DNA from: Candidatus Peregrinibacteria bacterium | GTDB taxonomy: Bacteria > Patescibacteriota > Gracilibacteria > UBA1369 > UM-FILTER-53-11 | DNA: 64,000 bases | Assembly: GCA_016186205.1 (NCBI GenBank) | Contig: JACPMA010000017.1 | Coordinates: 56,777-120,776, forward strand | Direction: 5' to 3' | Translations under genes and position numbers: made by a program | Notes under the pieces: model-generated | Seen by the model: the letters and a program-made list of their open reading frames with translations, nothing else | What the model was told of the DNA's origin: nothing | The model's database searches: none | Shown here: piece by piece, positions 34,066-63,775 of the stretch | Layout of the letters: every line of letters starts with the position of its first letter | Numbering within the stretch: position 1 is the first letter of the stretch

Positions 34066-34160
34066 AGGCCGCCGAGGAGCGGGTCTCGTGGGTTCCCGCT
34101 CCGAGGTCATACGCGGGCGGCCTCAAGTAGCGCACAGCGCGGTAGGCCGCCCGCGAAAGA
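34066..34160. repeat. GC-rich double-hairpin element between ndk and the pabB core
   Basis: GGAGCGGG..CCCGCTCC and CGCGGGCGGCCT..AGGCCGCCCGCG; shares GGGTCTYGTGGGTTYCCGCTCCGAGG with the copy at ~54209-54237. Confidence 0.7.
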
Positions 34161-34164
34161 GTGG

Positions 34165-35454
34165 GTGTTTTTCGGGCCATATATTTGTCATGTTGATAAA
34201 AGTGTGAAGGTGTCAAAAGGTGAAGCCGGTTTGTTATTCATGCGCGAATTTTTGAGGAAAAATTTTCGTCCGCGACGGGCCGATGATCCGCCGTTTGTGT
34301 CGGGTTTTGTTGGTTTTGTAAGTTATGATTTGGGTGCGAAATGGTCAGCCGAGCAGTCTTTGTTAAAGGTTCCTGTTAAGGTTCCTGTTTACGAGGCAAT
34401 CTGTCCTGATGCGCATTTTGTTTTTGTAGATAGGGTATTTACAAATTTTGAAAAAACCGATCAATTTATGCCCGGGCATCAATCACAAAATATCCAACAA
34501 AATTGGCAAGTGCCGAGCGGTCGCGAAGAATATTTTGAAAAAATCTCGCGGATCAAAGAATATCTTTACGCCGGCGAAACATACCAAGTGAATTTTTCGC
34601 AGAAATTTGAAGCGCCGTATAACGGAAATGCATTTGAGCTTTACCAAAAACTTTCCGCCATCAATCCATCGCCATTCCAATTTTTTATGGAAACTTCCGA
34701 TTGGGCGATTATTTCTAATTCGCCGGAGAGACTGTTTAAGATACGCAAGCAAGATGGTTTGATGCCGCCGCAGCTCGGGTCTTGTGGGTCCCGAGCGGAG
34801 GCGGCCAAAGGAAGGGGGGCGAGTCCGAAGCGAAGCGAGGCGAGCTCGTGGGGGAAACGTAGTTTCCCCCAGATTATCTCCACGCGTCCCATAAAAGGGA
34901 CGATGCCGCGCGGCCGTACGCCGGAAGAAGACGCTATCAATATCCAAAAACTCCTCGCGAGCCCGAAAGAAGCTGCTGAACTCGCCATGATTGTCGACCT
35001 TGAACGCAATGATCTTGGAAAATTGTGCAAGCCCGGTACCGTCGAGGTAAACGAGGATCGCGTAATCGAAAAATATTCCCATGTTATTCATACGGTTTCA
35101 AATATCCGCGGCGTACTGATGCAGCAGTACGATTGGTACGATGCTTTAAAAGCTCTTTTCCCTGGCGGATCCGTTACCGGCGCGCCAAAAAAGCGAACCA
35201 TAGAAATCATTTCGAAGCTTGAAGGAGAACCTCGCGGCATTTATTGCGGAAGCGCCGGCTGGATTGATCTTTCCGGCGAGTGCGATTTTAATATTATGAT
35301 CCGCACTTTATGGCTTGAAAAAAACAAAAACGGTGGTACACTTATATTCCGTTCCGGCGGAGGAATTGTGGTGGATTCCGACCCGCAGAAGGAATACGAA
35401 GAAACCATCCATAAAGCAGAAGCCTTATTTTCCGCCATGAACGTGTTAAAATAG
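34165..35454 (+). CDS. pabB: Aminodeoxychorismate synthase component I (start uncertain; carries an in-frame palindromic insertion)
   Basis: G.VG..SYD, GETYQVN, SPER, TRPIKGT, MIVDLERND, FPGGSVTGAPK, GGGIV.DS. Confidence 0.85.
   Translation: MFFGPYICHVDKSVKVSKGEAGLLFMREFLRKNFRPRRADDPPFVSGFVGFVSYDLGAKWSAEQSLLKVPVKVPVYEAICPDAHFVFVDRVFTNFEKTDQFMPGHQSQNIQQNWQVPSGREEYFEKISRIKEYLYAGETYQVNFSQKFEAPYNGNAFELYQKLSAINPSPFQFFMETSDWAIISNSPERLFKIRKQDGLMPPQLGSCGSRAEAAKGRGASPKRSEASSWGKRSFPQIISTRPIKGTMPRGRTPEEDAINIQKLLASPKEAAELAMIVDLERNDLGKLCKPGTVEVNEDRVIEKYSHVIHTVSNIRGVLMQQYDWYDALKALFPGGSVTGAPKKRTIEIISKLEGEPRGIYCGSAGWIDLSGECDFNIMIRTLWLEKNKNGGTLIFRSGGGIVVDSDPQKEYEETIHKAEALFSAMNVLK
34764..34871 (+). mobile_element. 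Family-P palindromic element inserted in frame in pabB
   Basis: Adds ~36 aa between SPERLF and TRPIKGT; homologous to 25508-25630 and 59578-59645. Confidence 0.8.
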
Positions 35455-59713: not shown

Positions 59714-62101
59714 TTACCCCAGAATAAAAAGCTTGCCGTAGTCCCTGTTTTTAAGGCGGCTGTCTAAAAGGTAGCAGGTTTTTGATTTATTTTGTGCGCT
59801 TTTGCCGAGCTCTGCGAGGATTTCGCGAAAGCGTGTTATGGCGCGCGGAAGAGTGTATTGCTCGAAACCGTTTTCAAATTGTTTTGAGCGATTGGCGAGA
59901 ATCGGATCATTCGGCGGATCAAAAGGAATTTTTTGAAACACGGCTATGTCGATGTCGTTTTCGATTTCCTGGAGATTTGGAAGAATTTGGTTTGTGGAAA
60001 GCAGCGCGGATTTTTCAGGATTTTCTTTGAAGAGAGCAAGCGATTTTCCTTTGCCGCCGGACGGACCCATGGCGAGAAGCCGGATTCCAATCGGCTGGAT
60101 TTTCGGAAGGAGCGCTTGATACATTGCTGCAACGGTTTTTTTGGAGCTTAAAAGGAAAAGTACACGGCCCCTTTTTTCACAAATAATTTCAGTGAAGAGT
60201 TTTATGCAGCGTTTGAAATAGCCTTCGGAATACGGTTCCGGAAAATCATCGGGGATTTTAATATTGAGATTTCCGTAGCCCGTATTTTGTATTTCGCGTT
60301 CCATTTTTATTTCTTTCCATTCCGAACCAAATTCAAAAAGTTCTCGTATGAGTCGAAAACTTCCGTCACCGCTCAATGCTTCGCTTTGAAGGATTATTTT
60401 CTGGAATGACTGTGTGCATTTTTGAAAATATTCAGCAATGAGAATTGGAGCTTGATGAAAAACGAGTTCGTTGGCGGAAGCCCGGATCCAATTTGCGGTA
60501 TTTGGCTGCGGTTTAAATACTTCAGCGAGTTTTTCTTTTGTTGGATGATCCGGGAGGTTTGCAAGGGCGATTAACACGCGTTTCCATTCATGAGTTTGCC
60601 GTAATTCATCATCAAGAATCACATTTCCTTTAAAGCCGGCTTCATCTTCGCTGACAAAACGTTCATAAAAAATTCCCATGAGTCCGAATAGCATGGCTGC
60701 TTTTTCTCCAAAAATCGGACGAAGGTTGATTTCGGTAAACCGTTTAAAAAAAGCATTTGTAAAAGAATCTTCCAGACGGGAAGCTTCCGCGATGATGAGG
60801 CTGCGGCGCTGTTGTTGGTGCTGTATGCCGTCCGTGAGTTTTTCCGCAATGCCGCGGGCCAAAGCGTATTGATGTATTAATACGATAAAACAATGGGAAG
60901 CGGTTTTAAGCGCTTTTTTCCAGAAAATATCTTGCCCTTCTTCATCGGCGAGAAGATCAAAGAGCGGGAATTCTTCACGATCGAGCGAAAGTTCGTCGCG
61001 ATCGCCGGTTTCGGTTGTTTCATTCCACAGAATCATTTTGAGGAGAAAAGGCGTTTCTTCGGCCGGGAAATTGTGTTGTTTTAATTTTGACGCGAGTTTT
61101 TTCGGCGAAATATAAAAATTCGGTTCTTTAAGCGTAGCTGTGGAGAGATTTAATGACGCGGCAGCGCGGAGGATTTCATCGCGCTTGCGCGTCGTATTGT
61201 AGGCAACGAGGATAGGTTGCTCTTTGAGTTTTTGAAATGGAATTTCAGCAGCAGATTCCAGTAAAATTTTTTGACCGGAGAGAAATTGCGTAATTATTTC
61301 ATCATTCCATAATTGATTAGGCGCGGCGGTTCTGATCCATCCCTCGCTCGGTACGGCGTTCTCGCGGCCAGCGCCGCGAGCCGCCATAAGGCGCATCCGC
61401 CCGCTCCGCTTTCGCGTATGCGCCTCGCACTCGGCCTTGCCGCCCCGACGTACGTCGGGGACCTTGCCGGCAAGGCCTCCGTGAGCCTCGCTCGGAATGG
61501 ACACAGAACCGCCGCGCCTAGAAAATAATTCTTTTCCAGTCCACCCCGATTTTTCCAACACAGCCTGAATTTTTCCCATAGCCGCCTGCGGAATTTCGGC
61601 AATTCGGCCAAGCAAAAATTCAAAAAATTCCACCGTAGTCTCGCAATCCACCATCGCGCGGTGGCTATCGCGGAGCGTCAATCCATATTTTTTCATTAAA
61701 ACCTCCAATGCATACGATGATTCTTTCAAAAGTAAAATCCGCGCCAGTGCGACAGTGTCTATTTCCGGATTTTTCACTTCCGCGTGATGCGAGCGCAGAA
61801 AAGCCGTATCAAAAGCAATATTATGTCCGACGATCGGCAAGCCACCGGCAAATTCCAGCACATTCTTTTTTATATCGGCAAAAAGCGGCGCAGTTTTGAC
61901 ATCCTCATTTTTAATTCCCGTCAGCAACGTTATTTCATATGGCAAAGGAACGCGCGGATTTACGAGCGATTCCCATTGTTTGATAATTTTGCCATTTTCC
62001 CATTGAATTGCCGCTACTTCAATAATATGGTCTCGGCTTGGATCTATACCTGTTGTTTCTGTATCAAGAAAAATGAACGGTCCCATAGCAGTCCGTTTCA
62101 C
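59714..62101 (-). CDS. DnaQ-type 3'-5' exonuclease fused to a degenerate DinG-like helicase
   Basis: DTETTG, GHN..FD, HRA..D; DinG-like C-terminus (K.PF..P.DP, LP.A, LDSR); Walker A and DEAH motifs degenerate. Confidence 0.85.
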   Translation of the reverse strand: MKRTAMGPFIFLDTETTGIDPSRDHIIEVAAIQWENGKIIKQWESLVNPRVPLPYEITLLTGIKNEDVKTAPLFADIKKNVLEFAGGLPIVGHNIAFDTAFLRSHHAEVKNPEIDTVALARILLLKESSYALEVLMKKYGLTLRDSHRAMVDCETTVEFFEFLLGRIAEIPQAAMGKIQAVLEKSGWTGKELFSRRGGSVSIPSEAHGGLAGKVPDVRRGGKAECEAHTRKRSGRMRLMAARGAGRENAVPSEGWIRTAAPNQLWNDEIITQFLSGQKILLESAAEIPFQKLKEQPILVAYNTTRKRDEILRAAASLNLSTATLKEPNFYISPKKLASKLKQHNFPAEETPFLLKMILWNETTETGDRDELSLDREEFPLFDLLADEEGQDIFWKKALKTASHCFIVLIHQYALARGIAEKLTDGIQHQQQRRSLIIAEASRLEDSFTNAFFKRFTEINLRPIFGEKAAMLFGLMGIFYERFVSEDEAGFKGNVILDDELRQTHEWKRVLIALANLPDHPTKEKLAEVFKPQPNTANWIRASANELVFHQAPILIAEYFQKCTQSFQKIILQSEALSGDGSFRLIRELFEFGSEWKEIKMEREIQNTGYGNLNIKIPDDFPEPYSEGYFKRCIKLFTEIICEKRGRVLFLLSSKKTVAAMYQALLPKIQPIGIRLLAMGPSGGKGKSLALFKENPEKSALLSTNQILPNLQEIENDIDIAVFQKIPFDPPNDPILANRSKQFENGFEQYTLPRAITRFREILAELGKSAQNKSKTCYLLDSRLKNRDYGKLFILG
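61318..61520. mobile_element. MITE-like element with terminal inverted repeats, inserted in frame in the exonuclease-DinG gene
   Basis: TA-GGCGCGGCGGTTCTG ... CAGAACCGCCGCGCC-TA; 199 nt plus one TA = 201 nt (67 codons); internal palindromes. Confidence 0.85.
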
Positions 62102-62155: not shown

Positions 62156-63775
62156 ATGAAGCAAATTTTACAAACAACGTTTTCTGTTTTTCTTTTCGTA
62201 TTACTCGTATTTTTCTCTCTCGGCGTTGAAACTGTTTTTGCCCATCATGAGACGCCTTTTTCTGACGTTTCGTCATCGCACCCGAATTATACTGCGATCG
62301 AATATTTCCGCGTGCGGAATATGGCGAAAGGATATAACGATGGGGATTTTCATCCGGGCCGGCGAATTAATCGCGCGGAATTTATTGCCATGATTACAAG
62401 AATAATTGCAGTCGATCCTGACGAAGATGAATTTAAAAATTGTTTCTCTGATGTAAAAAAACAGTGGTTTGCGGATGAGGTTTGTTATGCAAAATCGGAA
62501 GGTTGGCTTGACGGATTGATTTCCGGACGCTTGTTCCGGCCTTCAAAAAAAGTCAGCGCTTCGGAAGCTAATAAAATCGCAACACGAGCTTTTGATATTT
62601 ATAACATTAATGCCGATAACAATTTTATCGGTTCGCTCACGCGCGGCGATGCTGCGCAAATGCTCTATCAAGTTATGTTGGCAGCTATACAAAAAGGAAC
62701 CTATGCCGCGCAGAGCCAATATTACACTCCGACTGTCGGCGCTATAAATCCTTATACGGTAAGTCTTCCGCCGGGCTATGGGACGCCGTGGGTTCCATCC
62801 GGCGTTTCAACGCAGCAATATACGCCTCCAGTTTCTTCTTATTCATATTCGCCACCATACTCGCCTCCCTATTTGCCTCCGTCACCGCAATCACGGGTCT
62901 ATGCTCCATATGCCGATATGGGACTTTGGCCAACATTTAATATGACCCAGACAGCGAATGCCACAGGAGTAAAATTTTACACCATGGCTTTTATCAACAG
63001 CCGAGGATGCGATGCCGCATGGTTTGGCATCGTGTCTTTGAATGATTCTCTCGCAAATCAAATCGGAACCGATATAAATTCCCTGCGCATGCTTGGCGGC
63101 GATGTAATTGTTTCCTTTGGCGGCGCCACAGGAATCGAATTAGCCAATGCGTGTTCGACCGTTACGGAACTCCAAGCGCAATATCAGCGAGTTATAACGA
63201 AGTATGCGCTCCGCCGAATTGATTTTGATATTGAAGGAGCTGCCATTGCCGATACAGCGGCAAATGACAGACGAGCGCAAGCCATCGCCGGCTTGCAAGC
63301 GGCAAATAGTAATCTTGATGTTTCTTTTACGCTTCCGGTTTTGCCTACCGGTTTGACGCAGCACGGCATTGATTTTTTAAAGAATGCGGCACAACGAGGC
63401 GTTGCTTTCAGCACGGTAAATATCATGACGTTTGATTATGGTTCCGCATACCCCGGCGATATGGGCGACCTTGCAATTGCAGCCGCCCACGCCACAGCCG
63501 ATCAACTTGCATCTGTATATCCGAACCGAACGCTTTCCCAAAGGAGAGCCATGATCGGTGTTACGCCGATGTTTGGCAAAGACGATCAGCAAAGAGAATT
63601 TACTCAAACTGATGCGCAGGAAGTGCTTGTTGCAGCAAAAGCTGAAAATTGGGCGAGGCTTTCAGGCTGGGGGATTCACAGGGATCATTTCTGTACTAGC
63701 GCTAATAGCCTCGTATGCAGCGGTATTGCTCAACAGGATTTTGCATTTTCGAATATCTTCAAACAGTTTCCGTAA
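62156..63775 (+). CDS. SLH-domain surface protein with a Pro/Ser/Tyr linker and a C-terminal GH18 chitinase-like domain
   Basis: Signal peptide, SLH repeats, APY.D, SFGG, IDFDIEG (DxDxE), TLPVLP.GL, VNIM.FDYG. Confidence 0.88.
   Translation: MKQILQTTFSVFLFVLLVFFSLGVETVFAHHETPFSDVSSSHPNYTAIEYFRVRNMAKGYNDGDFHPGRRINRAEFIAMITRIIAVDPDEDEFKNCFSDVKKQWFADEVCYAKSEGWLDGLISGRLFRPSKKVSASEANKIATRAFDIYNINADNNFIGSLTRGDAAQMLYQVMLAAIQKGTYAAQSQYYTPTVGAINPYTVSLPPGYGTPWVPSGVSTQQYTPPVSSYSYSPPYSPPYLPPSPQSRVYAPYADMGLWPTFNMTQTANATGVKFYTMAFINSRGCDAAWFGIVSLNDSLANQIGTDINSLRMLGGDVIVSFGGATGIELANACSTVTELQAQYQRVITKYALRRIDFDIEGAAIADTAANDRRAQAIAGLQAANSNLDVSFTLPVLPTGLTQHGIDFLKNAAQRGVAFSTVNIMTFDYGSAYPGDMGDLAIAAAHATADQLASVYPNRTLSQRRAMIGVTPMFGKDDQQREFTQTDAQEVLVAAKAENWARLSGWGIHRDHFCTSANSLVCSGIAQQDFAFSNIFKQFP

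Follow-up and report, generated by a model that had tools for sequence, protein, structure and literature searches.

A multi-hairpin repeat in the linker of an ExoDinG-type gene of Candidatus Peregrinibacteria, with an outer stem that was likely copied from the host gene

The locus and its host gene

The DNA stretch analysed here, referred to as the window, comprises 64,000 nt from the genome of a tiny groundwater bacterium belonging to Candidatus Peregrinibacteria (genome G000; 1.39 Mb in 18 contigs, 92% complete). Its minus strand carries a gene of the ExoDinG type (Table 1; for background see PMC11981726), in which Pfam detects an RNase_T exonuclease and a Helicase_C_2 domain; the nearest solved structure is 8zef, a 3'-5' exonuclease DinG. 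The type was assigned on the basis of an N-terminal DEDDh exonuclease, for which a sequence check found all catalytic residues, together with a DinG-like part, with NCBIfam scores under the curated cut-offs and degenerate helicase motifs. The Walker A and B regions are degenerate, and since the former reads KILLESA instead of the EAGTGTGK of longer homologs, helicase activity appears doubtful. ExoDinG orthologs are present in 40 of the 41 genomes searched and 38 proteins passed E 1e-60. The window also encodes (62156-63775, plus strand) a 539-aa protein with an S-layer homology domain, SLH being its only Pfam match; we take its C-terminal part to resemble a chitinase fold.

Within the 790-aa open reading frame an element lies in frame at the ExoDinG linker (residues 189-256), in agreement with the initial annotation, which also described perfect 15-bp inverted repeats, flanking TA dinucleotides and three internal palindromes. 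The 15-mer matches exactly at 61320-61334 (plus strand) and 61504-61518 (minus strand), and all three palindromes were found. TA is present at both ends; it constitutes the outer two pairs of the inverted repeat, without demonstrating a target duplication. With TA counted in, the repeat is a perfect 17 bp, and the stem runs on to approximately 26 bp with a one-base bulge. The peptide (S)RRGGS of the upstream arm is the antisense reading of the downstream arm, and the core contains one hairpin at 61443-61460 and another, with a GCTG loop, at 61361-61380. The predicted fold is much more stable than expected by chance (z = -7.9 for DNA and -10.6 for RNA of the coding strand; none of 200 shuffles equally stable), and the GC content of the element is 71% vs 43-46% across the contigs of the genome. 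The single Rfam match, at 10.6 bits (E = 1.9), gave no known structured RNA or intron.

Table 1. Features of the ExoDinG locus; positions refer to the window.
Feature	Position	Strand	Description
ExoDinG-type host gene	59714..62086	(-)	790 aa; DEDDh exonuclease fused to a DinG-like part
Whole element, 203 nt	61318..61520	(-)	Family-A multi-hairpin core inside a copy-specific outer stem; ExoDinG residues ~189-256
Downstream outer-stem arm (3' in the mRNA; stem perfect over 17 bp)	61318..61334	(-)	Encodes R-T-A-A-P; probably host-derived
Upstream arm of the outer stem	61504..61520	(-)	Begins 2 nt past the F188 codon; encodes (S)RRGGS; putative inverted copy
Conserved family-A core	61335..61503	(-)	62-68% identity to three intergenic G005 copies, with compensatory changes
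Extra ~39-nt hairpin, 13 codons	61386..61425	(-)	Window copy only; gap in the four other family-A rows; limits approximate

Replacement of the host linker

The initial annotation regarded the element as a net insertion of exactly 67 codons and expected a clean 67-aa gap upon alignment with orthologs; neither expectation held. The span from F188 to KILLES is 84 residues in the window protein and 17 once the 67 codons (201 nt) are removed, vs 39-76 residues (median 46) in all 21 element-free homologs, as measured on 28 of the first 29 proteins (P0023 is without the region). Removal thus leaves about 29 host codons missing, and judged from these lengths the element has replaced most of the ExoDinG linker rather than interrupted it. 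No homologous linker of the same length, which would have spoken against an insertion, is present in the orthologs; element-free orthologs have shorter, unrelated linkers and the linker sequence varies freely among them.

Some ortholog linkers (L102, the dinG linker of G031, as well as P0015 and P0028) appear to be made of short tandem repeats. The dinG linker seems, from the sequences at hand, to collect several kinds of repeats.

The element belongs to a rare repeat family

BLASTN searches with the element found no second copy in its own genome and only 17-22-nt matches in 61 genomes. In the dinG ortholog of G005 the corresponding position is occupied by a 158-nt element, of which three intergenic copies are also present in G005. 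We refer to this group as family A (family letters A, B, C, H, I and K are labels of this analysis); it has one copy in the window's genome, four in G005 and one half-copy in G003. The five full sequences align along the core, and at 20 of 55 predicted pairs one or more of them differ on both sides of the pair. When a profile made solely from the intergenic G005 copies (three sequences) was run against the window's genome, the window element was its top match (E = 1.6e-6; next 0.91). By these sequence comparisons the window element belongs, as a diverged copy, to a family of multi-hairpin repeats.

As far as sequence-based searches reach (structure-only homologs may be missed), family A is rare. 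Only three of 205 genomes of the order matched a family-A copy, G132 with two partial matches, and a degenerate core pattern run over all GTDB contigs, a collection to which the window's genome possibly does not belong, matched four stretches, all in one Patescibacteria assembly. The lack of a second copy of the inverted repeat, which the initial annotation would have counted against the element, thus holds for the 15-bp repeat; it does not hold for the core.

The element is short and transposase-less, with a long stem-loop and dispersed copies, and is in this broad sense a MITE. Family A is found in frame in dinG twice and as a remnant in the unrelated gene PabB, as is characteristic of the palindromic elements of Rickettsia (RPEs). 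The suggestion of a non-autonomous palindromic element tolerated in coding sequence, similar to RPEs, was borne out by the dispersed family and by the position of the peptide in a long low-confidence segment of the predicted protein model (see below).

The same dinG slot in related genera

Long-stem elements from three families are present in 4 of 12 close dinG loci, one of which is a duplicate linker (z between -6.7 and -15). None of 29 dinG loci from other taxonomic families folds below -52 kcal/mol, the lowest z values, each based on 12 shuffles only, being -5.0, -4.6 and -4.0. In the closest ortholog, L046 (67% identical), the slot holds family B. Five full intergenic copies of this repeat family lie in the window's genome; 6 of the 11 genomes of the taxonomic family have matches to it, and a sample of 300 other genomes from the phylum gave none. 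The slot in G003 holds family C, with matches in 4 of the 11. In related genera, two or more further repeat families thus occupy this ExoDinG slot.

On a dinG tree built without the linker, 7 of 37 rows are element-bearing, among them P0003, P0006 and P0008, whose linker peptides look element-derived by peptide appearance alone. Five changes are needed, at least three of them on well-supported branches; the tree is the product of a quick search and 38 of 500 label shuffles did equally well, such that the enrichment is weak. The two family-A dinG copies (window and G005) are not sisters on the tree, and the window core is 58% identical to the G005 dinG copy vs 62-68% to the intergenic copies of G005, while four-fold sites of the dinG gene are saturated (35/114). 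Independent arrivals in the slot fit better than one conserved insertion.

Repeats in other genes and between genes

We examined 52 matches in relatives, of which 8 are at contig edges. Six lie inside an open frame and three of these in real genes with homology on both sides, i.e. a UvrD/PcrA helicase gene (L166, G003), PrmC (L175, G005) and a PabB/TrpE-like gene (L183, G005). These contain in-frame family-C and family-B elements, and some host codons have been lost in each; for UvrD and PrmC the origin of the arms is ambiguous. The PabB linker holds family B in G005 and a family-A remnant in G003 and probably in G009. As PabB, UvrD and PrmC follow the same pattern, we do not regard dinG as a special target.

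The window itself contains a different repeat type in a PabB/TrpE-like gene (34753-34872, plus strand), ending in a GGGGGAAAC-type hairpin and inserted in frame (~38 residues) in a loop other than the PabB linker slot; orthologs have little or nothing at this position. A second GC-rich hairpin element (34067-34150, plus strand) lies at the 5' end of the PabB-like frame, where it perhaps replaces the N-terminus or precedes the real start.

In total, the window's genome contains 43 long elements or fragments from ten families. All except the dinG element appear to be intergenic, including two that overlap open frames judged spurious, and many are located at gene ends. Six adjacent pairs of different families occur among the 43, and several intergenic slots are occupied by different families in different genera.

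Some individual loci in this genome are of separate interest. A perfect 118-nt palindrome (C14:80789-80906) consists of two right-hand family-B ends and fills the gap between two convergent genes. The ends of family-H elements at C9:99626-99793 and C14:45543-45710 reach up to or into the ends of the convergent genes on either side, and at the latter the terminal TAG/CTA appear to be two stop codons. Four GC-rich stretches (C3:11453-11655, C3:21080-21267, C16:24353-24567 and C18:117235-117408) resemble duplicated tRNA 3' ends with multi-hairpin inserts.

Origin of the outer stem

The outer stems are copy-specific. The four other full family-A copies have different perfect stems without TA and do not share the 15-bp repeat, and the outer-arm columns differ among the five copies, the cores of which are 58-89% alike. 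The same applies to family B (12 copies), where four pairs with cores 91-93% alike have outer arms that are 23-46% alike, no more than distant pairs. Elsewhere in the genome the best matches to the 15-mer have two mismatches and are without element context.

The clearest indication of where the arms come from is provided by PabB. The family-B copy in G005 PabB has a perfect 17-bp stem, the right arm of which encodes R-T-A-A-P before K-S-N and the left arm the antisense R-R-G-S; the element-free PabB of G001 reads R-G-S-A-P-K-S-N, and approximately 16 host codons are gone in the G005 gene. The window gene parallels this arrangement, with R-T-A-A-P on the right and R-R-G-G on the left. Although the cores differ, R-T-A-A-P of the window arm is in register with S-A-A-P of L046, and the right flanks of these two genes are identical at 15 of 24 nt (5-10 of 24 in the other five pairs). 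The stem in L003 extends into the host F-E codons, and one family-B copy in the window's genome has an arm continuous with a family-K remnant. In the clearest in-gene cases host residues are encoded by one of the arms, and the stem has therefore likely arisen by inverted copying of the flank. For the window element, comparison with distant orthologs suggests that the outer stem ends were likely copied from the host gene and are not transposon ends.

Some observations point the other way. The half-copy of family A in G003 PabB starts with the first 9 nt of the window arm in the same register, and these could be an inherited element end, even though x-A-P is encoded in both flanks and is host-conserved in PabB. 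Families K, I and partly H share ends, as ordinary MITEs do.

Stems that creep gradually outwards were also considered and rejected. Complementarity of flanks past the stems was 2.62 vs 2.33 +/- 0.48 in shuffled pairs (n = 40), i.e. without excess. The test was weak, as the outer run was misassigned in several cases, among them the window element. As no general flank complementarity is left over, one step fits slightly better than slow creep.

Mobiliser, translation and excision

The initial annotation proposed looking for a transposase with the same ends. Searches of G000 for six transposase and reverse transcriptase families (Y1_Tnp, DDE_Tnp_1, DDE_3, DUF772, RVT_1 and Transposase_20) detected none of them. 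Phage_integrase gave two matches of Xer size and GIY-YIG only a 749-aa frame, with no small stand-alone GIY-YIG gene found. Genes adjoining the elements in G000 are mostly housekeeping genes, and no recurrent mobility gene was seen as judged by clustering and sequence reading. In relatives, 15 small GIY-YIG loci were checked, and these repeat families flank none of them. Several stand-alone small GIY-YIG genes there (L198, L202, L203, L219, L211 and L221) have tRNA-derived repeats or short hairpins of the GTCAT type next to them.

The frame is kept in all four dinG elements that were checked at the DNA level; in intergenic copies, 60 of 234 frames are open. An AlphaFold2 model based on 36 sequences has a mean pLDDT of 86.8, and its sole long segment below 50 is residues 192-256, the peptide of the element. 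Frame and model suggest that the peptide is likely translated as a disordered loop, and together with the freely varying linker the model places the peptide in an exposed, dispensable position. Excision at the DNA level, which had also been proposed, found no counterpart in our data: the assembled contigs of four DNA sequencing runs, all from a single study that is possibly the source of the genome, contain no skipped joint, with the proviso that contigs drop rare variants. Three of the four assemblies span the stretch of the element in one piece.

Weighing the explanations

We consider it probable that the element is one copy of a dispersed family of repeats with multiple hairpins (160-200 nt), which are likely selfish and mobile, and that it replaced most of the linker in frame, forms a disordered loop in the protein and owes its outer stem to an inverted copy of the flank. 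A selfish element in the form of a single-stranded hairpin would join a nick or break in the linker. During or shortly after insertion, a fold-back template switch would copy 10-17 nt of one flank to the other side. Host DNA would be dropped during insertion or during the template switch, and selection would keep only those events that preserve frame and linker length. The slot would recur since any sequence is acceptable in the linker as long as length and frame are kept. A further, more tentative proposal is that these are transposase-less mobile hairpins with terminal repeats of their own making, whose single-strand integration deletes the target and writes an inverted (not direct) 10-17-base copy of it, possibly by means of a so far undescribed enzyme.

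Alternatively, elements might target existing hairpins or older elements, such that the outer stem would be left over from a previous occupant and the slot would be a landing pad that arose a single time. The six adjacent pairs of different families among the 43 elements, the family-B copies that abut family-K remnants, the intergenic slots shared by different families in different genera and the PabB linker with its family-A remnants (G003, probably G009) and family B (G005) all agree with such serial replacement. It is unlikely nonetheless: arms that encode conserved host residues (A-P in PabB and F-E in L003) are left unexplained, an inverted copy is still needed once, and element-free sister linkers are without a hairpin. 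We find it rather improbable that a functional RNA or DNA structure (e.g. for ribosome pausing or an RNase III site) has been conserved in the ExoDinG linker since one ancestral insertion. Long-stem folds at one position in several genera, the same orientation of family A in two non-sister lineages and the enrichment of intragenic REPs in DNA-repair genes (reported in PMC3733652) would agree with a function, but the cores come from different families that also lie between genes, 30 of 37 tree rows are without an element, and PabB, UvrD and PrmC behave alike.

The IS630/Tc1-mariner MITE with 15-bp terminal repeats and TA duplication, as originally proposed, is largely refuted and in our judgement very improbable. 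TA is found on both sides, and 5 of 23 long-stem elements in the genome start with TA. However, the ends are absent from the four other full copies, which are without TA, the best other matches to the 15-mer lack element context, host codons of the linker were lost, and neither DDE_3 nor DDE_Tnp_1 was found in the 92%-complete genome. It is scarcely conceivable that the element is precisely removed from RNA or DNA. The stem would bring both junctions together, but the resulting linker would be 22 residues shorter than any of 21 homologs; in addition, the four DNA-checked copies are all in frame, the DNA contigs are without a joint, and the Rfam match was uninformative.

Comparison with known systems

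In-frame palindromes of ~150 bp in ten families are known as RPEs (PMC10969869 and PMC3184786), and different RPE groups have been described at one site in orthologs, where the choice between a hotspot and divergence was left undecided (PMC3767692). Intragenic REPs are frequent in repair genes (PMC3733652), and template switches from one inverted arm to the other are an established process in bacteria (PMC5941160). Our literature search, which covered few subscription journals, turned up no account of these repeats in Patescibacteria and none of inverted ends derived from the target. We thus found no earlier description of host-derived ends with flanking loss, and in-frame palindromes and shared slots are already known from Rickettsia.

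The locus on its own is one more RPE-like coding palindrome, and the element is of that kind and not an IS630/Tc1 MITE. A perfect terminal repeat together with TA is insufficient to call a MITE. Resemblance to TA-flanked MITEs (ERIC, Correia and RUP; PMC3184786) comprises size, a long stem-loop, the lack of an internal transposase and a preference for gene ends; in contrast to these, there is no family-wide terminal repeat, no demonstrated TA duplication and, in the searches of G000, no cognate transposase. Two other systems, RAYT-associated GTAG/CGTC REPs and NTS/SRM repeats with their SsnA nucleases (PMC3733652 and PMC11893778), are similar in that hairpins are probably handled as single-stranded DNA and that repeats are sometimes in frame in repair genes, and small GIY-YIG genes exist in genomes related to ours. 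Compared with REP/RAYT, however, the present elements are much longer, have no GTAG, and occur in a genome where no Y1_Tnp was found. They also differ from SRM/Ssn (PMC11893778), since the SRM pattern matched none of the four dinG elements and the families flank none of the 15 small GIY-YIG loci.

Like quasi-palindrome template switching, a replication route to perfect inverted repeats in bacteria (PMC5941160), the proposed mechanism would generate a perfect stem; unlike the case presented there, in which mismatches between existing arms are corrected, it would create a new arm of 10-17 nt with loss of host DNA. If terminal repeats are indeed made from target DNA, ordinary cut-and-paste would be excluded and a single-strand or template-switch route would be indicated for RPE-like elements, with a sequence signature that is testable in strain pairs.

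RPE-1 to RPE-10 are likewise dispersed palindromes of similar size, with several families per genome; some copies lie in frame in housekeeping and DNA-repair genes, where they encode parts of the protein that are exposed at the surface (PMC10969869, PMC3733652 and PMC3767692). The present repeats, likened to RPEs by description and not by sequence, differ in their Patescibacteria host, in that most copies are intergenic, in cores with several side hairpins, in copy-specific outer stems that are likely host-derived, and in the replacement of host codons. Finally, the presence in one linker of different families, each with its own intergenic copies, favours the hotspot reading posed for Rickettsia in PMC3767692.
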